From IMG/VR virus record IMGVR_UViG_3300011008_000016, positions 64,001-128,000 of that record: DNA of 64,000 nt. One strand, 5' to 3'. The notes beneath the pieces are model-generated. The model saw only the letters and a list, made by a program, of their open reading frames with translations. It was not told the DNA's origin and did not search any database. A program made the position numbers and the translations under genes. This DNA comes from a virus. Its lineage: Duplodnaviria; Caudoviricetes. Every line of letters starts with the position of its first letter. Position 1 is the first letter of the stretch. This document shows positions 4,000 through 48,929 of the stretch, in pieces.

Positions 4000-6525
4000 T
4001 TATATCCACCCATCATCATTGTGGGATTTCTTTTTGGTACCAAATGCCGTATATTCCATACTGGATGCCTTACGATTATTTAGGTTTGCCCATTTTTCTC
4101 GTAGCATTGATGCTGGGCTATCCGCACTTGGAGACCTATCAACTGTTTGTTTTCCATATTCGGGATCAGCTTGTACCAAATCCTTTACAATAGAGCCCAT
4201 TTCATTATCAGCAACGGCCCGTAATGTCATACTCTTCTTTTCTTTGTATTTCTCTTCCAATCTGGTACGAACAGTACTTTCGTAGAATTGAGTCATTGTA
4301 GGGAATTGAGCACGAATAAGAGGGTTCTTATAAAGCTCTTCTAAGTTCTCAAATTCTTCATCGAGAACCATATCATCTGGTAATTCCCCTTTATGGAATC
4401 CATAACGTTCTAACTTTTCACCAAAATAGTATGCGTACATTGCAATACACCACGACATAACACAGTCATCGTGTTTATCAGCCGCAGCTTTAATGATATC
4501 ATTCTTTATAACCAGATTCTTAATGTCTTCCACTAAGTTTTCTGATCTTAGTATGTCTTTTCGGAATTTTACAGAATCTACCAGTATAGACATCATCATT
4601 CTTCTGGTTGTTGTCGTTGTATGAACACCATAATATTTCCGTCTCATCAATTCATCTTTTAAGAATCCTACATTATCGTATTTGTCTCTTGTAAGAAGTG
4701 TTTCAGGAGATGCTTCCGAAGAGGCATATATACGACTTTTAATCCAAGAATCTTTAAAGAAATCTATGAGTGTAATACCATTACGGTTACTTTCAACACA
4801 GATAATTGCTTTTGGTATCCATTTTGTAAGCATATATTCCAACAATTCTCGACACCCTTGTGGAGACATATATTCGTTCTTAAACTCAATAACAGTTTTA
4901 AACGTATATGGATCTATAACGGTCATTGCGTAATTATCAGAGCCAGTACCATCGGATGGGTCAAGTCCCAAGAAGTAAATTCTATTTTTTCTTATCTCTT
5001 CTTGAGGTACGTAGAATTTAATCTCATACATTCCGCCTTTTCCGAACTTAACAACTTCAACTGGTTTCTGTTGATTTTCATCAAGTTCAGTGATATCTTC
5101 TTCACTAAACGGTGACATATTGTTACCGGAGAACCTTTGAAGTAAGATTTCCCTACGAATCTTTGGAATGTTATTACCAACCGTAGAGCAAGCTCTTACA
5201 AACCAAGCTTCCCCAAGTCCCAATTGTTTGTAATTATATTCGATGTAAACAACTCGATAGTTTGTCTTCTTGACGATATACTTTTTAAACTCTAAAGGAT
5301 GTACATCGTAATATTTTTCACTCCAGACGACAGAATCTTCTACGATTTTTAGTGCAGAACCGCACTTCTTTTCGTTTGATAAGTCTCCCGGAGTAGTAGC
5401 AAACATCCGACATGAATGCATCCCATTCATTAGAGCGTTATATGAAGCTGTATTGAATGCCATACCTGAGACCTGTACAGTAGTTTCAATACAAGTGGTG
5501 AATTCTGCTTCATCAAAGAACTCAAAGTTATGAGTATCGCCACGACCAAGTTCGTCAGCAGTTTCTTCTGATATGGCACAATGCATAACATCCGCAGTAT
5601 TTCTGGTTACAGGTTCTGCGTATTTCGTAATGTTATTTGTTTTCTTAACAAGTCTACCAGAGTTATCATATGTTTTGGAACCCATATTAGCCATATATTT
5701 AGGGAGTAGACCAATATAAGTTACCATTCTCTTTAAGTTGGCTTTACTATTCTTTTCTTTATTGGCATAAAAAGCAAATCCACCATTGGTGATACCGAAC
5801 TTAAATGCCCAAGATAAGAAAGCACATAACCCAACCGATTTTCCAGTCTGTCGAGGTTTGATTAAATAGAAATTGATATCATTAATGAAACAATATGCTG
5901 CTGCAAGTGTCGCTCTATCTAATTCAAATTGTACAACACCCGCACCCTGTTGGGGTATTCTTACAACCTCTCTTAAATAATAGAAGAAGTTCAATTGACA
6001 TTCTTCTATGACCATCATTGCAACCTGAGGAGAGATATTCGGGTCGTGTGGATCTACTCCCTTTAGTTTGGGATTCAATAATAATAAAAAGAATTCATTA
6101 TTCCGAATCCCAAGCATCTTTAATTGCTCATGTACCTTTAAGAATGACTTATTCTTTGTTTCATGATCATAGATGGGACGCATTGCCCTATATCCGTTAA
6201 AATATGCCGGATTTGATACATCAGGGGAAATCGTTTGATGTATAGTATTACTTGATGGTGACTCATTTTTTGTGTCACCATCAAGTATTCTTTTCACAGC
6301 ATTATCATCCAGAACAGGAGAATCTTCAATATCTGTATTTACTACTTGTATATCTGGATTATCTGCGTTTATTTGGCTCATTCGTACCTTCTGTATCATA
6401 TCAGAAAGTGTCATTTGTTTTGGTTGATATGTTACTTGTACTTGCTCCTCTGATGTTTGTCGGGGTTCTTCATTACCGGCAGTTCTAAACTTAGGTCGAA
6501 GTTTTGATATGGGAGCGTATACCAA
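4000..6525 (-). CDS. terL: terminase large subunit
   Basis: Walker A KPRQTGKS, Walker B FFDEAEF, motif C ATTP, nuclease motifs GLDPSDG and HDDCVMS. Confidence 0.93.
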   Translation of the reverse strand: MVYAPISKLRPKFRTAGNEEPRQTSEEQVQVTYQPKQMTLSDMIQKVRMSQINADNPDIQVVNTDIEDSPVLDDNAVKRILDGDTKNESPSSNTIHQTISPDVSNPAYFNGYRAMRPIYDHETKNKSFLKVHEQLKMLGIRNNEFFLLLLNPKLKGVDPHDPNISPQVAMMVIEECQLNFFYYLREVVRIPQQGAGVVQFELDRATLAAAYCFINDINFYLIKPRQTGKSVGLCAFLSWAFKFGITNGGFAFYANKEKNSKANLKRMVTYIGLLPKYMANMGSKTYDNSGRLVKKTNNITKYAEPVTRNTADVMHCAISEETADELGRGDTHNFEFFDEAEFTTCIETTVQVSGMAFNTASYNALMNGMHSCRMFATTPGDLSNEKKCGSALKIVEDSVVWSEKYYDVHPLEFKKYIVKKTNYRVVYIEYNYKQLGLGEAWFVRACSTVGNNIPKIRREILLQRFSGNNMSPFSEEDITELDENQQKPVEVVKFGKGGMYEIKFYVPQEEIRKNRIYFLGLDPSDGTGSDNYAMTVIDPYTFKTVIEFKNEYMSPQGCRELLEYMLTKWIPKAIICVESNRNGITLIDFFKDSWIKSRIYASSEASPETLLTRDKYDNVGFLKDELMRRKYYGVHTTTTTRRMMMSILVDSVKFRKDILRSENLVEDIKNLVIKNDIIKAAADKHDDCVMSWCIAMYAYYFGEKLERYGFHKGELPDDMVLDEEFENLEELYKNPLIRAQFPTMTQFYESTVRTRLEEKYKEKKSMTLRAVADNEMGSIVKDLVQADPEYGKQTVDRSPSADSPASMLREKWANLNNRKASSMEYTAFGTKKKSHNDDGWI

Positions 6526-6530
6526 TTATA

Positions 6531-7829
6531 TCACCCCTCATATCCTGCTGGATATTTTACGTAAATGCCGTATTTATCCCCGATATTATCGACATTCTTT
6601 GACAAAATCTCTTTTCTCATTTCATTAAGTCTATCCAACCTGTCATCTTTAGGCAGATTCAGAACTCTACCCTTTGCTGCTTTAATCTGTTTTGTTTCCT
6701 CCTCTTTGATGGCATCAATGCAGTCATAGACTTTATGTATGAAATACATTTTATCTTCTGGTGTCTTGATATCATCAATCTGAACCTGAAGTACATCAAG
6801 GTCTCGTGATGTTACTTTCATTGCTTCAGTTATAGCAGATTCAGCCGCTTTCTTCTGCTGGTCATATTCCCTATTATATGCGTTTTCCATAAGGGACTTT
6901 GATGTCGAGGTTGTATACTTATCATCACCAGGGTCGTATCCAGTAAGGTTACGTCCAACGAAAGTCATAAGTTTCTTCTGGAAATGACTATTTGTCGGAT
7001 TGTTATATTGAGCCTGAATCTGCCGATTCAACATATCCCTACGATCCCGTAGCATTTCAACAGAATCCCTGGATAACTCAATACCGACTTCCTGCTCTTT
7101 GTCGAATGATTTTCCGTCTACAACCATTCGAGAACCTTCAGGAGAAGTAAGCAGATTTTCATTCATATAAGAAACTAATGCGCCCTTATATTCATCAGGT
7201 ACATAAGCATCCGCAGCCATTTCGCAAGCTTTCTGATCGTGCCTATCTCGAACGACAATAAAGAATTCCAATGTATGAGTAAACATCGGAAGAAGTATCG
7301 CCCTAACAATTCGGCTATTAGAAAGCATCATTTTCTCTAACATAGAAAATTCAAGGGACTTCACTTTGTAGTTATTGATAAGTCGAATCGGATTCTCTGT
7401 CATAACATGACCGATTTCATGACAAAGAAGTGCTACAAACTGTCGTCCATCCGTTACACATAAACGGTTTCCTTTTGTCAACACCCTTGTATCAATTTCA
7501 ATATGCCATTCATGAATTTCTGCCCATTTCCGGACAAACTCTGCATTGTTAGACCTTGGATTCGTGAGAATCTTAGTGAGTTCGTCTGACTTTGCATAGA
7601 GTTCACTGATATCGGGAGTTATTGACATAACAAATGCTGTTTTCGCATTCTGATTCCATGTAATAGTGACTCTCTTTGAAGGCATCAATGTGTTAGGAAT
7701 AACCCTTGCAAGAACATTATTTAGGCTCATAGCCATTGCTGGATTATTCTGTTTACTACTCAAAAAATAATTGACTTCATCCTCAATAATCTTGAGTTGA
7801 GCCAATTCTGATGTTGAGAATGTACTCAT
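6531..7829 (-). CDS. putative zinc metallopeptidase-like head protein
   Basis: LCHEIGH (HExxH) plus downstream EMAAD; start moved to ATG 7829 after AAAGGAG. Confidence 0.6.
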   Translation of the reverse strand: MSTFSTSELAQLKIIEDEVNYFLSSKQNNPAMAMSLNNVLARVIPNTLMPSKRVTITWNQNAKTAFVMSITPDISELYAKSDELTKILTNPRSNNAEFVRKWAEIHEWHIEIDTRVLTKGNRLCVTDGRQFVALLCHEIGHVMTENPIRLINNYKVKSLEFSMLEKMMLSNSRIVRAILLPMFTHTLEFFIVVRDRHDQKACEMAADAYVPDEYKGALVSYMNENLLTSPEGSRMVVDGKSFDKEQEVGIELSRDSVEMLRDRRDMLNRQIQAQYNNPTNSHFQKKLMTFVGRNLTGYDPGDDKYTTSTSKSLMENAYNREYDQQKKAAESAITEAMKVTSRDLDVLQVQIDDIKTPEDKMYFIHKVYDCIDAIKEEETKQIKAAKGRVLNLPKDDRLDRLNEMRKEILSKNVDNIGDKYGIYVKYPAGYEG

Positions 7830-7848
7830 TATAGTATGTCTCCTTTCT

Positions 7849-8109
7849 TTATTCGTATAACTCAATTCCTAATTCTTTTAATTCTTCCGGACTTAACTGG
7901 TCTAATCCTAAACCCGCCAATGCTTCTTTCTGAGTAATTGGTTGATTCGGGTCCCAAGGTTCATATCCAGATTCTATGAGATGCCCGATAAAAGCATCTA
8001 TGTCACAACCTGCATCTTTGAGTTTTAAGTCATCCCATTTTCCAGATTCAAGTTGTCTCTTTGCATATTCCCGATAAGCTTCTTCATTTGTACTGTAAGG
8101 TGTATCCAT
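7849..8109 (-). CDS. hypothetical protein
   Basis: ATG 8109 after AAAGGAG; late motif at 8141-8152. Confidence 0.7.
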   Translation of the reverse strand: MDTPYSTNEEAYREYAKRQLESGKWDDLKLKDAGCDIDAFIGHLIESGYEPWDPNQPITQKEALAGLGLDQLSPEELKELGIELYE

Positions 8110-8140
8110 AAGAAACTCCTTTCTGGCCAATAGTTTATCT

Positions 8141-8152
8141 TAGAATTGTGTT
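8141..8152 (-). promoter_or_regulatory. late-type promoter AACA-N6-TA (terminase operon)
   Basis: AACAcaattcTAAG on minus strand; one of about 16 copies upstream of genes. Confidence 0.7.
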
Positions 8153-8200
8153 GAATACGAGCATTCTAAATCAAATTCGTGATGGTGGATTATTCATGAA

Positions 8201-8208
8201 TATATTAA
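8201..8208 (+). promoter_or_regulatory. early-type promoter motif TATATTAA
   Basis: same motif recurs at 8424, 13998 (TATATTAT), 18567, 21271, 27224 (+) and 60282, 63507 (-). Confidence 0.55.
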
Positions 8209-8214
8209 ATCTTT

Positions 8215-8384
8215 ATACATAAGATAACCAATAACCATTTACTACTTAGATAAAGCGAAAATGCAGAGATACAGAAGTTAAGGAGCTATCAATTCGTATT
8301 ACAACTCTACGAAAGATAACCTTATTTCTGCATCTCTGCATTTTTCGTAGCAAGGGGGCGAAAGCCCCCTTCTACCCGTTTTTT
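8215..8384 (+). ncRNA. putative small hairpin RNA
   Basis: follows TATATTAA; long imperfect stem 8256-8347; GGGGGC-GAAA-GCCCCC terminator with T run; no ORF. Confidence 0.5.
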
Positions 8385-8438
8385 GTATATTTCCAAAATT
8401 CCGGTTCACAGACTTTTCGCAACTATATTAAATACTTA

Positions 8439-9040
8439 GATATACAGAATAAATCCAAAGATAATGCAATTAGAAAGGAACATTATCAGATTCTATATAT
8501 CGAGTCTATAGAAAGGAGTGAACCTTCGGTGAAAAACATTTGGTCAAACTTGGCACTTGCTACAACAGGGAAGCATAATCCAAATTATACAGGTGTCCAA
8601 GCGATGAGTGATTTACAGAAGAGACTGCCTGCAAGTACAAGGATTGCTACTCGTAATGTGTCCGCATTACACGTAACCCAAGACTTGCAAGGCAGTCTCA
8701 TTCTTCTGTAAGTTACCACCGTCAACCAGTGGTGATTGGTAACCGCAGTTTCATGGACGAGTATGATTCACATCGTTCAAATATTGCGGATAATCCCGAA
8801 CTGTTTGAATCTGACATTAATCAGATAATGGCAGTTCTGGGTTAAATCCCATCATTACGACATACCATCCATTCTAATTCTGCAATTATCAAATTGTTAT
8901 AATATAAATAATCTATTAGAATATGATGGTATGAGATGGTGCTACAGAAATCGTACCTTGACAACTGAATAAAATAGGGGTGGTCGGTCGCGACTCAACC
9001 ACCCCCCTTACACTATACACCCTATGATAATTTATAGGGC
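8439..9040 (+). ncRNA. putative large structured RNA (chain of about 9 hairpins)
   Basis: follows TATATTAA at 8424; back-to-back imperfect stems; only a 60-codon ORF inside. Confidence 0.5.
8529..8711 (+). CDS. possible small peptide inside the structured RNA
   Basis: GTG preceded by GAAAGGAG; 60 aa with no recognisable motif. Confidence 0.3.
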   Translation: MKNIWSNLALATTGKHNPNYTGVQAMSDLQKRLPASTRIATRNVSALHVTQDLQGSLILL

Positions 9041-9097
9041 CGCAGGTATATCCCGCGATTAATAAAATGTTATGTGTAGTTTAAATTATAATGATTA

Positions 9098-9138
9098 AAA
9101 CCGTAAAGGGTAACGACGATAGTTACCCTTTACGGTTT
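9098..9138. terminator. terminator of the capsid operon (bidirectional)
   Basis: 17-bp stem AAACCGTAAAGGGTAAC / GTTACCCTTTACGGTTT followed by a T run. Confidence 0.8.
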
Positions 9139-9168
9139 ATTTTTTTGTACTGTTTAACCGAACATTGC

Positions 9169-11091
9169 TTACATGTTCTCAGCCGTTACAGCAGAATCAT
9201 AGTTCTTGATCTTGAGCTGGAACGCGAACGGAACGTAAGGACGTGTGAAGAACGTAGCAACACACATTACGTTCGGGTTGTTCGGCATCTCGCGTACCCT
9301 GTGGTCACGATCAAAGTACAGAGCCCTCTTGAAATGTTTCCAAGTAAGGAAGTTCTGCTCGTTGATCGGGAAGCCAAGTCCGCGAATTCCATCCTCTTCC
9401 TTGAATTTCAGGGAAGTGATGATACGAAGAGCATTTCCATCCTGAGTCGTAACACCCATGTTGTAGTCGGAACGGATTCCGCCAATGATGTTATCGCCAG
9501 CATTGACCTTCCAGTCGAAATTACTTCCGACAAAGAGAGAAGCCACATTCGGATGGCAATATGCTGTAAGTCTGAACGGCTCGTTCTGGCAGGTCCTGCG
9601 AGCTTCACGAATAATCGCATTCAGCTCATTGCTGACCTTATCCTGTAAGTACTCAAGCCGCTTCATGTACGGATTATTCTGATCATACGCAACATCCACT
9701 GTACGCGTAATGAACACACGACCTTTGAAGTGAATGAACGGATGCTCAGTGACACCACGCCACTTCTCGGTCTCATCCTGAATCGTCTTGACGATAGAAG
9801 TATCCTCAAGATTGTTGTAAATCTCTGTCAGGCGGTTAATACCCCAAGCGATGATATCGATGGAAGCAGTCTCGTTGTACAAACGCATATCCTCAACAGT
9901 GATAGGCAGATTTGCACGATACCCTTCCGGGATTGGATGCTGCCATGCATCGTATTCATCTCTGAACGACAGATATTCCATGTTATTCTTATTGGACAGA
10001 TTTCCGCCGAAGCGAACCTGCTTTACAAGACCGTTCATGGAAACAACGCTGACACGAGCGGTATACTCGTCGTAGGTAGCCATCAGGACATCCTCGGCAT
10101 ATCTCTCGATATTACCAGCAGCATCCTTAACAGGGAACCTTACCTTACCGCCAATCTGGTTCTTCGGGCTAATAGCGGTCGTATCCAGATACTTCTCAAG
10201 TCCAGAAATCTCAACCATATAGCTCTCGCCCGCAGAGTTCGTAACCATAGCACGAGCGGCATCAATGCAAACATTGATATCCAGTGCGTCGCCGATTTCA
10301 CGAGCCCCACCAGACTCACCAAGCAGGTCAAGGTCTTCGACCCTACCAGCCTTATCTGTGAACTTATATTTCTTTTCAGAACTTCCTTCACCCTCAGTGA
10401 AATCAGGAGTACCAGTGGAAGAAGCCTCAAGCTCCTCAACACCATCCTCCGGATACCAAGTGGAAGTAACCCTCGGTCCCTTAGCGGACTGAAGGATTTC
10501 AGCCGTTGCATCGTAATCGTTGTATACATCCGGCTCAAGATGACGCTGTCCATCCTTCGTTACGATGTACTTGAACTGCTCCTTAATACGAATGAAGTGC
10601 TGCTTCGGCACGATGTAAGGAAGTAGATCCTTTCCGACAAGCGGAAGATATGTACGAATGATAACAAAAGGTAAGAAAGCATCGTAAGGCGTTAATTCGC
10701 CAATACCCCTTTGGTTCGCATTTGCTACACGCATTTCGGTGGTAGAATTCTCCAGAAGTCTCTGGAGGTTTCCTCTATGCAAGTCAGCCATGCCAACTGC
10801 TTCGGAGACTTCGTCATCGTCTTCGGTCATGCTCTCAAGGAAAACGCACGCACCTTTTTCGTAACTATTATCACCGAATAACTGCAAGCCATTGGAGTTA
10901 TCTACTGACTCCATTGCCATCGCAATGGTCGTATCTTCGAAATCTTTACTGTAAAGACTCATCGGGTCCCGAATAGGATCAGCGTAACCGGCTACTCGTC
11001 CAATGAATGATTCCATGGACTGGACAAGGTCTTCCGGAGTCTCACGCTTATACATATTGAGACGCTGAGTTCTGTTCATACCAGCACTCAT
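9169..11091 (-). CDS. major capsid protein precursor
   Basis: 640 aa; strongly biased codon usage; acidic propeptide with xMES/xLES/LLEN sites; HK97-like C-terminal region; near terminase. Confidence 0.75.
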   Translation of the reverse strand: MSAGMNRTQRLNMYKRETPEDLVQSMESFIGRVAGYADPIRDPMSLYSKDFEDTTIAMAMESVDNSNGLQLFGDNSYEKGACVFLESMTEDDDEVSEAVGMADLHRGNLQRLLENSTTEMRVANANQRGIGELTPYDAFLPFVIIRTYLPLVGKDLLPYIVPKQHFIRIKEQFKYIVTKDGQRHLEPDVYNDYDATAEILQSAKGPRVTSTWYPEDGVEELEASSTGTPDFTEGEGSSEKKYKFTDKAGRVEDLDLLGESGGAREIGDALDINVCIDAARAMVTNSAGESYMVEISGLEKYLDTTAISPKNQIGGKVRFPVKDAAGNIERYAEDVLMATYDEYTARVSVVSMNGLVKQVRFGGNLSNKNNMEYLSFRDEYDAWQHPIPEGYRANLPITVEDMRLYNETASIDIIAWGINRLTEIYNNLEDTSIVKTIQDETEKWRGVTEHPFIHFKGRVFITRTVDVAYDQNNPYMKRLEYLQDKVSNELNAIIREARRTCQNEPFRLTAYCHPNVASLFVGSNFDWKVNAGDNIIGGIRSDYNMGVTTQDGNALRIITSLKFKEEDGIRGLGFPINEQNFLTWKHFKRALYFDRDHRVREMPNNPNVMCVATFFTRPYVPFAFQLKIKNYDSAVTAENM

Positions 11092-31317: not shown

Positions 31318-32679
31318 TTATCCAATTAACCAATAAGGCCGTAATCCTACATCAACTACGAATATATTATTATTATATATTCGTGGACAATATAATCTGG
31401 ATAATTTACCAGTTGGATATCTAATTGTAAGTCCCATATTGGATGGGTTAGAAGCAGAAGCCCCATTAGCATTATTGCTATTATACACAATGACGTTTGT
31501 ATCATTTCCACACACGCCATACTGATAACTCTCGTAATATGTGGTACCAATTATAGCAGCACTACCAACAGTTCCTGCATATGATGCTTGGTTTGATAAA
31601 ACCCATTGTTTAAATACATTTTCCGTACCTTTTTTTGCTAATCTAAAATTTGGATTAAGTCGAAATATTGGAAATTCTATATCCATCCATTCACCATCTA
31701 AATAATAAGCGTAATTGTTAGCAATGTATATATCACCAAATACATTTTTTATAGATGGTTCCCCAATTTTAAATAATACTTCACCATAATTTGGAGTTGT
31801 ATTTGGTGTTTTAAGATGAGAACCAAACTTATTACTTATTGCCGTTTCATATGCATTAAGTTTAGATGTAAATAATGGTCTATGTATTAGTGCTGTAGAT
31901 GATGTTGCCGCAACATCATCAAGTGTTGTTGTGCCACAATTAAGACAATGTCTTGGCATTATTATTGCAGCGTTTGAATTAAGCTCATTAAATCCGTTTT
32001 CTAAAAATCCACATATTACGCATTGAATTGGCTCATTAGATTTATACGTTGTAGATACAGTGATATCGAAATAATCACCAATGAATAAATCCTCAAATGT
32101 ACCATCTGATATCATTTGACAAATTTGATTAATCGTATAAACATTCGTCAAGTCTTTTCCGCGATATATTGAATTATGTGCCCCCGCATTATTTGCAACT
32201 GTAAACAGCGTTGCAGGGATATTATTCAGTTTATTTTCAGCAGTTGTAAGTCTTGTTCCATGATTTGTAATATTCCCTTCTGCTGTACTCATGCGCGTTG
32301 TTAGATTTGAGATAGACGTTCCTTGTGAACTATTAATACTTTCAGTAGAACTCATCCTCGTTTTTAAATCTGAGACATCCGATTGTAACGTTGCTATATC
32401 TTCAGAAGTATCTGGAACATCTAAATTTGCAACGGTAGTCTCCAAAGTTGTAAGGCGAGTCTTAACATTTTCATTATCCGCTTTAAAAGACTCAAATGAA
32501 GTCAGTATATTATCGGGTACAAACTCTTCTAAGAATTCTGCTTCTGTTCCAGTGTATCCATTTCTCTTAGCAACTTCATACGAAGATTCCCCTTTATCAC
32601 CACTAATCGCAGCGATTCCTTCGTATTTCCCAGTATCGGGATTCACTACTTTAAGCGTTTCTTTTCGAATAGCTAACAT
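31318..32679 (-). CDS. tail fibre / receptor-binding protein with DUF6273-like C-terminus; paralogue of the DGR target without a VR
   Basis: N-terminus nearly identical to 33316-34526; coiled coil; NAGAHNSIYRGKDL; ends GLRPYWLIG. Confidence 0.8.
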   Translation of the reverse strand: MLAIRKETLKVVNPDTGKYEGIAAISGDKGESSYEVAKRNGYTGTEAEFLEEFVPDNILTSFESFKADNENVKTRLTTLETTVANLDVPDTSEDIATLQSDVSDLKTRMSSTESINSSQGTSISNLTTRMSTAEGNITNHGTRLTTAENKLNNIPATLFTVANNAGAHNSIYRGKDLTNVYTINQICQMISDGTFEDLFIGDYFDITVSTTYKSNEPIQCVICGFLENGFNELNSNAAIIMPRHCLNCGTTTLDDVAATSSTALIHRPLFTSKLNAYETAISNKFGSHLKTPNTTPNYGEVLFKIGEPSIKNVFGDIYIANNYAYYLDGEWMDIEFPIFRLNPNFRLAKKGTENVFKQWVLSNQASYAGTVGSAAIIGTTYYESYQYGVCGNDTNVIVYNSNNANGASASNPSNMGLTIRYPTGKLSRLYCPRIYNNNIFVVDVGLRPYWLIG

Positions 32680-32710
32680 AGTTAATCTCCTTTCTTAAAT
32701 TAACAAATAA

Positions 32711-32747
32711 GAGAGTAACCGAGTATTTTTGTTACTCGGTTACTCTC
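32711..32747. terminator. hairpin / terminator
   Basis: 15-bp stem GAGAGTAACCGAGTA / TACTCGGTTACTCTC. Confidence 0.65.
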
Positions 32748-32860
32748 AAATTGCCTTATTTTATTCCGGTAAACCCCAATTTATACTCCTTAATTTTCAC
32801 TAAAAAGTTTATTGAAATCTACCTTAAAAAGAAAGGAAACTACACTTTATTCGGGTAGAA

Positions 32861-33097
32861 TTAAGCTTCCGCTTCTGCCGCATCCAAAGCTTTAAGCTGG
32901 TCCTGAAGTTCGTTAATCTCATCCCGAATTGCCTGCCGCTGTTCCATAATTGCGTTCAGATCATAAGGCATCGGTTTTCCCATTCTTTCATATTCAAGAC
33001 ACTTCGTTACTGCCCAATCACCAACACGGGAAGCAGTAGAGCCAAGGTCCACCGTCAAATCAACAATTCTCTGATTGATCCTCTGACGTTCATCCAT
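32861..33097 (-). CDS. small coiled-coil protein, possible fibre chaperone
   Basis: ATG 33097 after GGAGGT; DWAVTKCLE...PYDL...RQAIRDEINEL; lies directly after the DGR target. Confidence 0.65.
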   Translation of the reverse strand: MDERQRINQRIVDLTVDLGSTASRVGDWAVTKCLEYERMGKPMPYDLNAIMEQRQAIRDEINELQDQLKALDAAEAEA

Positions 33098-33238
33098 TTT
33101 TATTACCTCCATTAGATTTCGATTATAAATTCGACGGCGGGCTATTAACCATAGCCCGCCGTGGTTTCACAGATTATTCTTGATAACCTAATTTGCTTGG
33201 TTCATTGTTTCAATAACTCTTAATTTGTTGCTCGCAGA

Positions 33239-33309
33239 ATCGTTCACTCGCCCCACACGGGGGCGAGATTGAACGATACGGTCCCTTGTCCCTACGGGAC
33301 TGCGGGACC
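33239..33309 (-). promoter_or_regulatory. GC-rich hairpins downstream of VR/IMH (DGR target-recognition cruciforms)
   Basis: GGTCCC..GTCCC-TAC-GGGAC..GGGACC (33280-33309) and ATCGTTCA-CTCGCCCC...GGGGCGAG-TGAACGAT (33239-33277). Confidence 0.75.
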
Positions 33310-33315
33310 TAGCGA

Positions 33316-34526
33316 TCAACCGATTAAGAAATACGGGCGCACACCGTACGAGTTGGACGCGTGGCTGTAACCGGAATGGCCATGGTAGTTGCAAACCGCA
33401 AAGGTCGTCGAGTGCGCAACGGCTCCAGATGAGCAATCTTAGCCGCCGGATTCAGACGGAACAGGTTGAACTGGGTGTTATTTGCTCCGATATCATAGAA
33501 CGAAGAACTCATAACGGTAGAACCATACAAATTCACTTCACTCATCAGACGAAGCTGTAAGCTAACCCATTCCCATCCACTCGCCGCTCCAGTTAAGCCA
33601 GCACCTGCCATAGAAGCACTGTTATTAGAAGCGTTCGAAATTAAACTCTTGTAAGAGAGCAGGTGACTACTTCCAATTACATTAGCAATCGCAGTTGCAT
33701 ATGCAGGAAGCGTTGTAGAATGCATGACTGTTGACTTATATCCACCGGTCACCACATCCGAAGTATTCATCTGAGCGGTTGTCTTGAAGCAGTCCGCAGG
33801 AACAATCGTTGCATGGTGCTTGGTCAACTCCGTATCACCGTTCCCAAGGAAGGTATCAAAGTCAGCCAATACGCACTTAACAACCTCACTACCTCCAATA
33901 GAGGAGTTAATCGTTATTGTGAAAAAGTCACCGATGAATAAATCATCGAAGCTCCCGTCGGCAATCTTAGCACAAATCTGGTCAACCGTATAGATATTGG
34001 CCAGATCCTTTCCTCTAAAGATAGAGTTATGTGCACCGGCATTGCTCTCCACAGACATTCCACCAGTCTGTCCAGATAAACCAGAGATGTTACTCTCAGC
34101 CGTAGTCATCCTTGACTGTAAGCTACTGATATCAGACGTATGGGTGCCAATAGTGGTACCCTGTGTAGAAACGGTACCCTGCAATGTAGAAACATTTCCC
34201 TGAACGGTGGACATGTTGCTCTTTAACGTAGATACGTCGGAGGTCAGAGAAGATACATCCGGAATATCCAGATTGTTTACCGTAGTCTCCAACGTACTAA
34301 CACGCGTTTTCGTGTTTTCAACATCAGCCTTAAACTCCTCAAAGGACAGTACCACATTCTCAGGTACGAATTCCTCTAAGAATTCAGCCTCTGTTCCAGT
34401 AAACCCAAGCCTCTGGGCGATTTCGTAGGAAGATTCTCCTCTGTCCCCAGTGATAGCAGCGATACCTTCGTATTTGCCACTATCGGGATTTACCACTTTA
34501 AGTGTTTCCTTACGAATAGGTAACAT
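33316..34526 (-). CDS. DGR target receptor-binding protein (DUF6273/CLec-like), frameshifted at the VR 5' border
   Basis: main frame stops at 33324; the VR frame reads AVAHSTTFAVCNYHGHSGYSHASNSYGVRPYFLIG* to 33316. Confidence 0.85.
33325..33424 (-). repeat. DGR variable region (VR)
   Basis: 13 substitutions against TR, all at TR adenines. Confidence 0.95.
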
Positions 34527-46476: not shown

Positions 46477-47646
46477 ATGAGTGATCTTAATCAGGTAAGG
46501 ATTCAGGTCCTTGACGCAGAAACAGGTACAGTCATCGATAACGTTGATGTGAAGACATCTGACGGTGCTGTCTATCTTCCTGACGGAAGTACCCTTCGTA
46601 GCTGGATTGCCCAGAATGAAGAGGCGTTTTCCGAGTTTCAGCAGAAGGTAACTGCGCACCTTGCAAAGCAGCACGTTGATCCGGCTAAGGTCGATTCCCT
46701 GTTCACGGGTCTGGCTTATAACGGAAATACGGGCGTATTTACAATTACTAAGCACAACGGCGAAACCGAGGAGATTGACACCCTTCTGGAGAAGGTGACG
46801 GTCAACTTTACTCTGGTTGATGGAACCTATGATGCTGTTTCCAATCCGACTGGTGATCCGAGTGCTCAGGACTACTTCGAGGAGAGTGCTGGCTCTTACG
46901 TGGCAACCGAGGATACCGAGGTTCAGGCTGGTAAGACCTACTATGTTGACAATACTGCTCGCGAGTATCTTGCTCTGACGGCTCAGGATGGCACGGTTCA
47001 GAAGCTGGATGTCACGAAGCTGGTTGATGTCTACAAGGGCAGCAATGCAAACGGCATTACCGTTGCGGTTGCGGCTGACAAGACTATCTCTGCTTCTATC
47101 AATGACGATTCTATCAGCTATACGAAGCTTGATGCTGAACTGAAGGCTAAGGTTGATGCTGAGTACAGCCTGCCTGCGGCTACTACGAGTGAGCTTGGTG
47201 GCGTTATCGTTGGTAACGGTCTGGCTGTTGCGAACGATGGAACTATCTCTGCAAACAACATTACTTACGGCGGAAATGCGGTTTCTATGGCTCTGTCTGA
47301 GACTGAGAATACGGTTGTTACTTCTGTTTCCGGTCCTGCTGATGCTGTTGTTACCACGACTGTTGACACGGCGGTTGCTCCTCTGGTTGTTTCCGCTACG
47401 TTCAGCGGAGCTCAGTCTGCGAATGCTTCTGCTACCTATCAGTGGTATAAGAAGACCATCGGCACTGATGTTGCGTTCAGCGCTATTTCTGGTGCTACTG
47501 GTGCAACTCTGGCTGCGGCTAACATCGACGTTACTACCGAGGGAAGCACGATTTACTACTGCGTAGTTGGTGCTACCGGCACTGATGTCGTTGCTGATCC
47601 TGTAACTTCTAAGAGGGTTACGGTTGTTGTAAACGCAGCGGCTTAA
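46477..47646 (+). CDS. abundant virion decoration / fibre protein with C-terminal Ig-like domain
   Basis: strong codon bias; YSLPAATTSELGGVIVGNGL; TYQWY...AISGAT...YYCVV. Confidence 0.7.
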   Translation: MSDLNQVRIQVLDAETGTVIDNVDVKTSDGAVYLPDGSTLRSWIAQNEEAFSEFQQKVTAHLAKQHVDPAKVDSLFTGLAYNGNTGVFTITKHNGETEEIDTLLEKVTVNFTLVDGTYDAVSNPTGDPSAQDYFEESAGSYVATEDTEVQAGKTYYVDNTAREYLALTAQDGTVQKLDVTKLVDVYKGSNANGITVAVAADKTISASINDDSISYTKLDAELKAKVDAEYSLPAATTSELGGVIVGNGLAVANDGTISANNITYGGNAVSMALSETENTVVTSVSGPADAVVTTTVDTAVAPLVVSATFSGAQSANASATYQWYKKTIGTDVAFSAISGATGATLAAANIDVTTEGSTIYYCVVGATGTDVVADPVTSKRVTVVVNAAA

Positions 47647-47750
47647 AGCTTAATGCTTTAATAACATACGACGAAACTGGTATGGGAGGTCGCAATTTTA
47701 TTGTGATCTCCCATACTTTCAATCAAAAATAAGCAAAAGGAGGCGGTATT

Positions 47751-48191
47751 ATGCCTAATTTATACAAAGTGCAGCACGAAGATTCTGCGGGCAATATAAT
47801 CCTTTATGCCTCTTCAGCGGAAATTACTGCGTTTGATTCATCAAAATGCACTAATTTGGATGCTAATAACTCGCAGGATGCTATCGTTGCTATAAATCAA
47901 AAGGCTGAGGGTAAGGCCAAGATGCTGACCTTCACTACAATCATTCGTGCCTCAGCCTTTGAAGGTGTTACTGCACCTTATACACAAAGTATCGATGTTA
48001 CCGGGATTCTTGCTACAGATACACCTGATGTTGGTGTTAGACTATCGTCTGATATCACAGAGGCATTGGCTCAGCAGGAATCATTCGGTAGCGTGACTAA
48101 GATAGAAACCGGTAACGGTAAAATTACCGTATACTGTTACGAAGATAAACCCAAAGTGGATATTCCTGTACAAATGAGAGTATTCCGTTGA
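47751..48191 (+). CDS. hypothetical tail-fibre-related protein
   Basis: APYTQSIDVTGILATDTP...GKITVYC..KP..DIPV. Confidence 0.65.
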   Translation: MPNLYKVQHEDSAGNIILYASSAEITAFDSSKCTNLDANNSQDAIVAINQKAEGKAKMLTFTTIIRASAFEGVTAPYTQSIDVTGILATDTPDVGVRLSSDITEALAQQESFGSVTKIETGNGKITVYCYEDKPKVDIPVQMRVFR

Positions 48192-48353
48192 GGGTTGTGT
48201 GACACATTGACTGGGAAAACATTGAAAGAACCATAAGGTGGATTTTTATATCCACCTTATGGTTCTTTTCTGAATGAAAATAAATAAGAGTCGGATACCT
48301 TCGCATCCAACTCTTATAACTTTCGTTGTATTTTGTAGTAGCCTGTATGTAGA

Positions 48354-48929
48354 TTACTTCAGCCAAGTAAAGGCATAGCCGCACAGTACTTCCTGCTTGC
48401 TGCTGAGGAGATCGGTGATAGAGAACTTTCCAGTCATATCATTTGCGATAACCAAACCGACCTTAACGGACGGCTCCTTAACAACCGGTGTAACCTTTGC
48501 CGCAAAGATGTAATCAGTACCCTTTGTAACCTGCGTTCCGAGCAGAGCAACAGGCTCGACATTAGCACCAACAAAGCCTTCCTTAGCAGTTTCGAATGCA
48601 GCCTTCACATCTTCCGGAATGTCTGTCGTTGTATTAATGGCAACGCCGCCAAGCTCTCCGCCGCCCAACACAACACGCTCGATGTTCACCAATGTGCAAT
48701 CCATACCCTTTTCATTGAAGATAATAACGACCACGTTCTTCGTGTCTTTACCGGTCGTGATAAGCTGCTCCGCCAGCACCGCATGATTCGTTCCGTTTAC
48801 CACCTGCGAACCCAGATACAGAATAGGAGTATACTCCGCCCCAATGAGCGTGTCAGCCAACTTCCCGACAGCCGTCGCAACCTTCTCTGGCATATTCTTT
48901 GAAATCTTGATGTCCCAACTTCCTAACAT
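48354..48929 (-). CDS. tandem cystatin-like domain protein
   Basis: two repeats LGSQVVNGTN / LGTQVTKGTD; GC-richer than neighbours; late motif at 48981. Confidence 0.55.
   Translation of the reverse strand: MLGSWDIKISKNMPEKVATAVGKLADTLIGAEYTPILYLGSQVVNGTNHAVLAEQLITTGKDTKNVVVIIFNEKGMDCTLVNIERVVLGGGELGGVAINTTTDIPEDVKAAFETAKEGFVGANVEPVALLGTQVTKGTDYIFAAKVTPVVKEPSVKVGLVIANDMTGKFSITDLLSSKQEVLCGYAFTWLK

Follow-up and report, generated by a model that had tools for sequence, protein, structure and literature searches.

Probable early transcription unit of a frameshifted small gene with a densely base-paired mRNA in a jumbo phage

Introduction

Stable mRNAs of Firmicutes and their phages classically combine a hairpin at the 5' end, a strong Shine-Dalgarno (SD) sequence and a terminator hairpin at the 3' end. 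Such stabilisers are found in the SP82 early RNA, in the ermC and aprE leaders and in the T7 early mRNAs, which end in RNase III hairpins, and in these classical cases they are confined to the untranslated ends. Short and highly structured transcripts are also found amongst the dual-function small RNAs (sRNAs), such as SgrS/SgrT, RNAIII/hld and SR1/SR1P, which encode a small peptide. Here we describe a region of back-to-back hairpins at positions 8439-9040 of a 64-kb stretch of phage DNA, referred to below as the window (bases 64001-128000 of the 244,309-bp IMG/VR virus record IMGVR_UViG_3300011008_000016, rated complete by CheckV). The original prediction, made from the letters of the sequence, took this region to be an undescribed large non-coding RNA (ncRNA) or a precursor of several small RNAs. 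Our analysis suggests that it is probably an early transcription unit of a small, frameshifted gene, the mRNA of which is independently selected for dense secondary structure.

The region has features in common with several described systems. It resembles the Bacillus and phage 5' stabilisers and terminal stem-loops in having a 5'-end hairpin, a strong SD and 3'-end hairpins, but its hairpins run throughout the coding region, where compensatory changes, some of them non-synonymous, preserve them. The likeness to the dual-function sRNAs lies in a short structured transcript with a small peptide; unlike in these, the structure is generic and is not built around a seed region. ROOL, GOLLD and OLE RNAs are comparable in size range (about 600 nt), in phage or Firmicute context and in dense base pairing, whereas the region described here has a protein-coding core, no conserved multi-helix architecture and no covariance-model match. 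For the virion RNA polymerase (vRNAP) of phage AR9 the early promoter has been defined experimentally as AAATATATATTAT-(6N)-G(+1), and the extended AT-rich element of AR9/phiKZ-type vRNAP early promoters, TATATTAT-(6N)-G(+1), is repeated upstream of early genes (PMC5312081). The AR9/phiKZ early units are likewise short and encode small proteins of unknown function (Lavysh et al, 2017, PMC5312081), and the phage studied here has a terminase related to those of the AR9-like phages. A term search of the main text of PMC5312081 found no mention of hairpins, and the paper does not seem to describe hyper-structured coding regions.

Results

The core of the region belongs to a family of small protein genes

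The small gene lies on the + strand and is preceded by the SD sequence GAAAGGAG (8512-8519), which is found in identical form ahead of the open reading frame (ORF) in the homologous loci L007, L008 and L017 and in the paralogues. Its 5' part occupies frame 0 at 8529-8711, with a GTG start, 60 codons and a TAA stop at 8709-8711. The 3' part, which encodes the conserved C-terminal domain (NRSFMDEYDSHRSNIADNPELFESDINQIMAVLG), lies in the -1 frame at 8657-8845 and ends in a TAA at 8843-8845. In a six-frame translation of the genome the -1 frame matches the family profile as a single copy with an E-value of 3.4e-18, and no paralogues were found elsewhere in this genome. The frame-0 N-terminal part matches the family at an E-value of 6e-8 and is homologous to the N-terminus of P0005, the protein of L017. 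The window keeps the beginning of the family (..NIWSNLALATTG..) as well as its end (..NRSFMDEYDSHRSNIADNPELFESDINQIMAVLG), but in two different frames.

Five relatives of the locus (L007-L011) were retrieved through their capsid protein, at 70-76% identity. The gap at the same site measures 718-980 nt in L007 and L008, about 790 nt in L011 and 542 nt in L010. Viewed in the orientation of the window, a TATATTAA-type box and a leader hairpin come first in L007 and L008, followed by GAAAGGAG and an ATG that opens an ORF of 78 or 71 codons terminating in ...FERNLxFLMNAxG; orthologues consisting of SD, ATG and ORF lie between the capsid gene and a gene for a protein of 432-444 aa in L007, L008 and L017. 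A profile search of 1.8 billion representatives returned 12 proteins. Amongst them, P0008-P0014 are seven members of 61-69 aa that have the C-terminal motif in common; P0005 (106 aa) is colinear with frame 0 of the window up to about 8657 and with the -1 frame after it. The family, which we call C, comprises P0001, P0002, P0004, P0005 and P0008-P0014; its members are 61-106 aa long, have an SD and a start codon ahead of them and share the C-terminal motif FMDEYExHRxNVxxNPxxF...IMxxLG. The pattern used to define membership, F-[MAT]-x-x-Y-[ED]-x-x-R-x-x-[VI]-x-x-[ND]-P-x-x-F, is present in the -1 frame of the window, while the intact single reading frame that also characterises the family is absent from it. 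Two much longer proteins, P0006 (1852 aa) and P0007 (2517 aa), match profile positions 20-46 in 10-12 separate stretches, which is probably a low-complexity repeat rather than homology.

As judged by comparison of the genes, codon periodicity, SD sequences with start codons and the conserved peptide motif show the family to be protein-coding. Differences between all pairs in the C-terminal block are distributed over the three codon positions as 0.42/0.29/0.58, and between the closest pair, L008 and L011, as 3/2/20. AlphaFold models the N-terminal half poorly and gives two confident C-terminal helices (mean predicted local distance difference test score 69.5), so that the variable N-terminal half is probably disordered. 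No significant family match for the small protein was obtained in Pfam or PHROGs. The two-helix model is too simple for a fold search, and the ESM Atlas gave only weak leads, such as a FlgM-like match with a template modelling score of 0.57 over 45 residues.

Homology of the region is detectable at the protein level only. The DNA of 8100-9200 has no match in 50,697 phage records and only one weak match, of 39 nt, when compared with the homologous gaps in four relatives; P0002 and P0005, used as queries in word-indexed searches, retrieved nothing but themselves, and a metagenome scan with the capsid alignment added one distant locus, L016. Several paralogues are found per genome in the relatives, each forming a promoter-ORF-terminator unit of its own: P0008 and P0009 lie together on one 220-kb contig, and the phage with L008 has at least four paralogues. 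With the small gene a new family of small early proteins is defined, as yet uncharacterised, of which at least one related genome has several paralogues.

The mRNA is selected for secondary structure

Folding against dinucleotide shuffles had been set beforehand as the test of the hairpin region, and on both strands it folds far better than the shuffles. Over 8425-9045 the minimum free energy (MFE) of the + strand is -194.7 kcal/mol compared with -136.4 +/- 7.7 for the shuffles (z -7.56), and the - strand gives a z of -8.13. The signal is uneven, being strongest in the gene core (8529-8845, z -8.55), weaker on the 3' side and not significant in the 5' leader, which on its own (8437-8528) has a z of -1.2. 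When the + strand of the whole window was scanned in 200-nt segments, the mean z was -1.36 (standard deviation 1.96) and z was below -8 in 3 of 320 segments, two of which fall in the gap at 8201-8400 (z -12.4) and 8601-8800 (z -8.2). Strong + strand folds are also seen at 33201-33400 (z -12.7), 33001-33200 (-6.7), 32601-32800 (-6.0), 47601-47800 (-6.6) and 48201-48400 (-7.3), the stretches 32601-33400 and 47601-48400 being GC-richer parts of the window.

Most of the stems that had been listed in the original prediction were recovered by the MFE fold together with an inverted-repeat scan, at 8439-8501, about 8549-8601, 8613-8711, 8743-8789, 8792-8843, 8861-8933, 8977-9005 and 9020-9039; the stem proposed at 8713-8742 is present at about 8719-8734 and is weaker than claimed. 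The 5'-end hairpin (8439-8501, +) has an outer stem GATATACAGAAT/ATTCTATATATC and an inner stem GATAATG/CATTATC and is not significant alone. A leader hairpin between promoter and SD is also found in L007, L008, L018, L019 and L029, and in L017 it lacks the inner 33 nt. The longest hairpin, of 99 nt (8613-8711, +), lies inside the coding region, with the frame-0 stop codon at the end of its 3' arm. L017 retains it with compensatory stem changes (helices 4-7), though the encoded peptide differs. Two further hairpins (8743-8789 and 8792-8843, +) lie over the conserved C-terminal codons, and the second of these, the last in the coding region, shows double changes in 2-3 of 5 orthologues.

The hairpins are not a by-product of the peptide, since synonymous recodings fold less well. 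Permutation of synonymous codons in the window gave a z of -8.1, with the observed energy reached by none of 100 permutations. For ten family sequences the same test gave z values of -2.6 to -6.7, and recoding to the codon usage of the genome -3.3 to -6.5 (0 of 60 for each sequence in either test), compared with a mean of -1.8 for 28 small ORFs taken from the same genome as controls; of these, the three with the most extreme values (z -9.3, -3.7 and -3.2) each lie behind another copy of the 49-nt promoter described below. When eight family genes were folded on both strands the sense strand gave z values of -3.0 to -8.6 and exceeded the antisense strand in seven of them. RNA structure is therefore under selection in its own right, beyond the needs of the protein and specifically on the sense strand.

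Comparison of the window with L017 gave a consensus fold of 79 shared pairs, of which 13 are compensatory, 14 one-sided but compatible and none broken; when the 3' partners were slid by 1-3 columns as a control, 0-1 compensatory pairs remained. G-U pairs make up 22 of the 158 paired cells in this fold, and as these would be A-C on the other strand they favour a + strand RNA, in agreement with what the original prediction had read from the G-T mismatches. Some compensation is non-synonymous. In one case TCT/CAG is replaced by TCC/CGG, keeping Ser and changing Gln to Arg, and between the paralogues L018 and L019 a swap of the paired hexamers GTAAGT/ACTTAC and ATACGT/ACGTAT replaces Val-Ser/Leu-Leu by Ile-Arg/Val-Leu. 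In the long mid-gene hairpin the wobble bias of the codon positions is lost (17/9/17).

What is conserved is a high duplex content and not an architecture. Only one helix occupies fixed columns across ten family members, over the Tyr-Glu ... His-Arg codons. The remaining hairpins are conserved within sub-lineages and placed differently between lineages, which is why we speak of generic structuredness; the 99-nt hairpin occurs only in the lineage of the window and L017, with stems of 7-12 bp elsewhere. Duplex content without an architecture argues against a ribozyme, a riboswitch or a ROOL-like RNA, and favours nuclease resistance, control of ribosome transit or transcripts without coupled translation.

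The gene lies behind a repeated AR9-like promoter motif

A 49-nt early-type promoter motif lies at 8395-8443 on the + strand, with its core TATATTAA at 8424-8431. The motif, AAAAATCCGGTTCACAGAG-ATTTTGCAAC-TATATTAA-ATACTTAGATAT, is present in seven copies in the 244-kb genome with 0-8 mismatches, the copy in the window having four mismatches to the consensus. Each copy is followed by AAAGGAG and then a small ORF of 55-95 aa within about 20-90 nt, and the units behind the motif are about 250-400 nt long with an intrinsic terminator at the end. Within the seven-copy motif the window has TATATTAA-(6N)-A/G, which resembles the AR9 consensus in sequence, and the upstream half of the motif (AAAAATCCGGTTCACAGAG...) has no counterpart in that consensus. 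By analogy with the AR9 early promoter, which the core resembles, transcription would start at about 8437-8438. The repeated AR9-like motif supports the promoter and the + strand orientation of the original prediction; early timing and the start site itself are inferred only.

Six further units behind the 49-nt promoter are found in the same genome (L002-L006), near 17.2, 52.5, 161.3, 175.3, 184.1 and 196.0 kb. They encode two other families of small proteins, MPLTGN..DDKLIRNFNRL and ..NPIL..IQYG.., and are also rich in hairpins. In the NPIL/IQYG family an invariant stem, CCCATACTG/CAGTATGGG, encodes the NPIL and QYG motifs. Most of the six units end in a common terminator, GTAATCGG..CCGATTAC.

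The copy in the window is damaged

Lesions were read against the DNA of P0005 (L017), a 642-bp contig that is 77% identical to the window. The ATG of L017 is absent, and the only start in the window is the GTG two codons further on, 10 nt past the SD. As read from the alignment, the window has two extra bases at 8649-8657 (9 compared with 7 in L017), directly before a conserved GTGTCC, and from the frameshift zone (8655-8671, +) the homologous reading goes on in the -1 frame. The frame-0 product of 60 aa is without the conserved domain. It is because of the frameshift that the gene was missed both by gene callers and by the sequence-only reader. A second assembly (ENA, L033), which matches the window without a difference over 3183 nt, has this allele too, and a random assembly error is thus unlikely, with the limit that the two assemblies may stem from the same population or even from the same reads. 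We also considered the segment 8613-8711 as a hairpin insertion, a mini-intron or a miniature inverted-repeat transposable element and rejected this: in P0005/L017 translation runs through the segment, of which the genome has no second copy.

The gene is evidently dispensable, since it is decayed, replaced or missing in relatives. L011 keeps the body of the ORF (L011:5748-5960, -) without promoter, SD or start codon, in L009 a 242-aa ORF on the capsid strand (L009:8077-8805, +) takes its place, and no recognisable copy is present in L010 (7660-8201).

No known ncRNA family is found in the region

No Rfam covariance model matches at gathering score anywhere in the 64-kb window, and with E-values up to 10 only chance-level matches of 14.7-22.8 bits were obtained in 8100-9200. 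ROOL (RF03087), GOLLD (RF01998), OLE, 6S and transfer-messenger RNA (tmRNA) have no match in this interval even at that threshold; RNase P gave the sole match amongst the large ncRNAs sought, a 15-bit fragment on the terminator, again at chance level. ARAGORN found no tRNA or tmRNA. The original prediction had been unable to assign the region to a known RNA family, and this stands, ROOL and GOLLD included. Its proposal of an undescribed large ncRNA is not supported, as the core 8529-8845 is homologous to a family of protein-coding genes and the positions of the hairpins are not conserved; a conserved ORF with codon periodicity and a peptide motif, and a single fixed-column helix in ten homologues, are not what is expected of a structured ncRNA. 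This removes a false lead, in that the island is not a new family of ROOL-like ncRNA.

Discussion

A probable early unit with a hairpin-rich mRNA

The region is probably an early unit of a frameshifted small gene whose mRNA has been independently selected for dense secondary structure. The unit would be monocistronic, with the 49-nt promoter, the 5' hairpin, the strong SD, the small gene, a structured tail and a terminator in this order, the last being common to the unit and the convergent capsid gene. The hairpins would act generically, shielding an early mRNA that is short and strongly expressed against ribonucleases (RNases) of host or phage and/or slowing its translation. On the present analysis stabilisation of the mRNA or tuning of its translation is the favoured role, and stabilisation is suggested because the units have a 5'-end hairpin, a strong SD directly after it and a 3' terminator hairpin. 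In this genome the full protein is probably no longer made, and the transcript would be either the product of a recent pseudogene or a survivor as RNA only; with its reading frame broken, it may now work only as RNA.

Several observations weigh against this explanation. The folding background of the phage is negative overall (mean z -1.4). The covariation in the long hairpin rests on two sequences, and the consensus fold was derived from the same two. Most relatives lack a counterpart of the 3' 250 nt, where the two strands fold equally well. Finally, the broken copy in the window has the strongest folding in the family together with an intact promoter, and a broken but strongly folded copy fits a function at the RNA level at least as well as it fits a simple mRNA.

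A dual-function or RNA-only element, in which the hairpin array is itself active and has been kept after coding was given up here, for example as a decoy or sponge rich in double-stranded RNA (dsRNA) for host RNases, dsRNA-binding proteins or defence sensors, is a serious though unlikely alternative. It would account for the retention of promoter and SD and of the strongest structure in the family after the loss of the ATG and the frameshift, for the non-synonymous compensatory changes (Gln to Arg, and the hexamer swaps of L018/L019), for the lost wobble bias in the mid-gene hairpin (17/9/17) and for the abundance of hairpins in all three small-gene families behind the 49-nt promoter. However, across the family it is the peptide motif that is conserved and not the positions of the hairpins, the hairpins of the relatives are mostly of 7-12 bp, which is short for dsRNA sensors or RNase III, and the frameshift may simply be recent; in L011, where promoter and start codon are lost and the fold is weakest, coding and structure decay together. 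A related proposal, that selection for RNA duplexes in a class of early 'hairpin-array' transcripts of these jumbo phages is strong enough to cause amino-acid covariation in the encoded peptides and that the peptide has here been abandoned while an RNA of about 700 nt persists as a functional structured RNA, is tentative, although we would not dismiss it. If it were true, this RNA might decoy host RNases or dsRNA-sensing defences, or alternatively be a stability or export element for transcripts without coupled translation. Rather improbable is a decaying remnant, a dispensable early gene of the moron type that is being lost, with inherited structure and no present role. The two lesions (the ATG replaced by a downstream GTG and the 2-nt surplus), the variability of the site (L011 without promoter and start, L009 with another ORF, L010 without a recognisable copy) and the single copy here compared with at least four paralogues in the phage of L008 are consistent with decay, but the promoter has only four mismatches to its consensus, the shifted frame is open over 62 codons and all 79 of the 79 shared pairs are intact, which fits either a very recent lesion or continued selection.

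Programmed recoding, by a -1 frameshift or a ribosomal bypass at the long hairpin that would restore a protein of about 105 aa, was rejected as the main explanation because its signals are absent, and we regard it as very improbable. Frame 0 and the -1 frame are both open over 8657-8709, the frame-0 stop lies at the foot of the 99-nt hairpin and the allele is reproduced in the second assembly, and there is a resemblance to the bypass of T4 gene 60 and to the mitochondrial byps in a hairpin within the ORF, a stop at its foot and another frame downstream. Against this, the overlap 8657-8709 contains neither a slippery heptamer (X XXY YYZ) nor a homopolymer run, and no convincing take-off/landing pair is present: the CTG at 8706, the codon before the stop, has no landing match before the conserved domain, and neither a stop nor a rare codon follows the sole matched pair, AGT 8607 and AGT 8711. 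Unlike in gene 60 and the byps there is no matched pair by the stop, the hairpin is translated in L017 and the change of frame is a 2-nt indel; the closest orthologue reads through in one frame, and most of the hairpin precedes any candidate site instead of following it. It is equally hard to credit that the functional strand is the - strand or the DNA itself, whether as a long leader of the late operon of the 93-aa, 444-aa and terminase genes, a capsid read-through RNA, a cruciform, or an origin or pac element. The whole region does fold as strongly on the - strand (z -8.1), its 3' part is without strand bias, the U-run of the hairpin at 8977-9005 is on the - strand only and the position is between the capsid and terminase modules. 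Within the gene, however, the sense strand folds better in seven of eight homologues, the 14% of paired cells that are G-U would read A-C on the opposite strand, paralogues at unrelated genome positions share the property, and no late-promoter motif was recognised.

These putative early small-gene mRNAs form an unusual class, with seven units per genome and three protein families, in which coding regions fold with z values of -3 to -9 against synonymous recodings and compensatory substitutions override the identity of amino acids. They offer a tractable case for asking why phage early mRNAs would need near-complete base pairing. Such pairing might confer resistance to nucleases, suit transcription that is uncoupled from translation in nucleus-forming phages, or help to evade RNA-targeting defence.

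The 3' region and the upstream unit

Beyond the small gene a structured 3' region extends over 8846-9094 (+), with hairpins at 8861-8933, 8977-9005 and 9020-9039. It has a z of -4.1 on the + and -4.6 on the - strand, showing no strand preference. No homologue of it was found in the relatives, and in L017 and L007 the terminator follows within about 50-90 nt of the ORF with no counterpart of the 3' region. The bidirectional intrinsic terminator at 9098-9148 consists of a 17-bp stem followed by a T-run on the + strand; read on the - strand, it serves as the terminator of the capsid gene as well. The hairpin at 8977-9005, which has a U-run on the - strand only, may together with this terminator provide a back-up for the capsid transcript. 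A short motif, (A/T)AATGTTAT, lies at 9066-9073 and also, in three copies, in L007 and L008, between the small gene and the capsid terminator; it recurs in the 3' region of three related genomes, and some copies on the - strand fit AACA-N6-TA. The idea that AATGTTAT (AACA-N6-TA on the - strand) is a late promoter of the AR9 type driving an antisense RNA was dropped, because the motif is not enriched upstream of genes here.

Upstream lies a separate unit at 8201-8385 (+), in which a TATATTAA box at 8201 is followed by a hairpin some 90 nt long, with arms at 8258-8276 and 8326-8344, and then by GGGGGCGAAAGCCCCC, a GNRA-loop terminator with a T-run. It has no conserved ORF. The unit is found at the same place in L007, L008, L009 and L011, five genomes with the window, with differing stem sequences and a compensatory change in 9 of 27 predicted pairs, and is a better candidate for a true small ncRNA than 8439-9040.

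Setting of the locus

The hairpin region is flanked on one side by the gene for the major head (capsid) protein (9169-11091, -) and on the other by three - strand genes, encoding a 93-aa ORF, a 444-aa ORF and the terminase. The longest stretch of the window without an ORF of at least 80 aa, 8131-9090, measures 960 nt, more than twice the next (423 nt), which bears out the earlier statement that a gap of about 1 kb is exceptional here. The large terminase (4000-6525, -) is closest to those of the Bacillus phages vB_BpuM-BpSp and Goe21 (31-33% identity), followed by those of Staphylococcus S6 and phiKZ-like phages, and on these affinities the phage is placed in the AR9/phiKZ supergroup of jumbo phages. 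A Firmicute-type host is likely, as the SD sequences read AAAGGAGG. The 444-aa protein encoded beside the terminase (6531-7865, -) has no Pfam match; a HEIGH (HExxH) motif is conserved in an alignment of five relatives, and it may be a metalloprotease-like virion or maturation protein.

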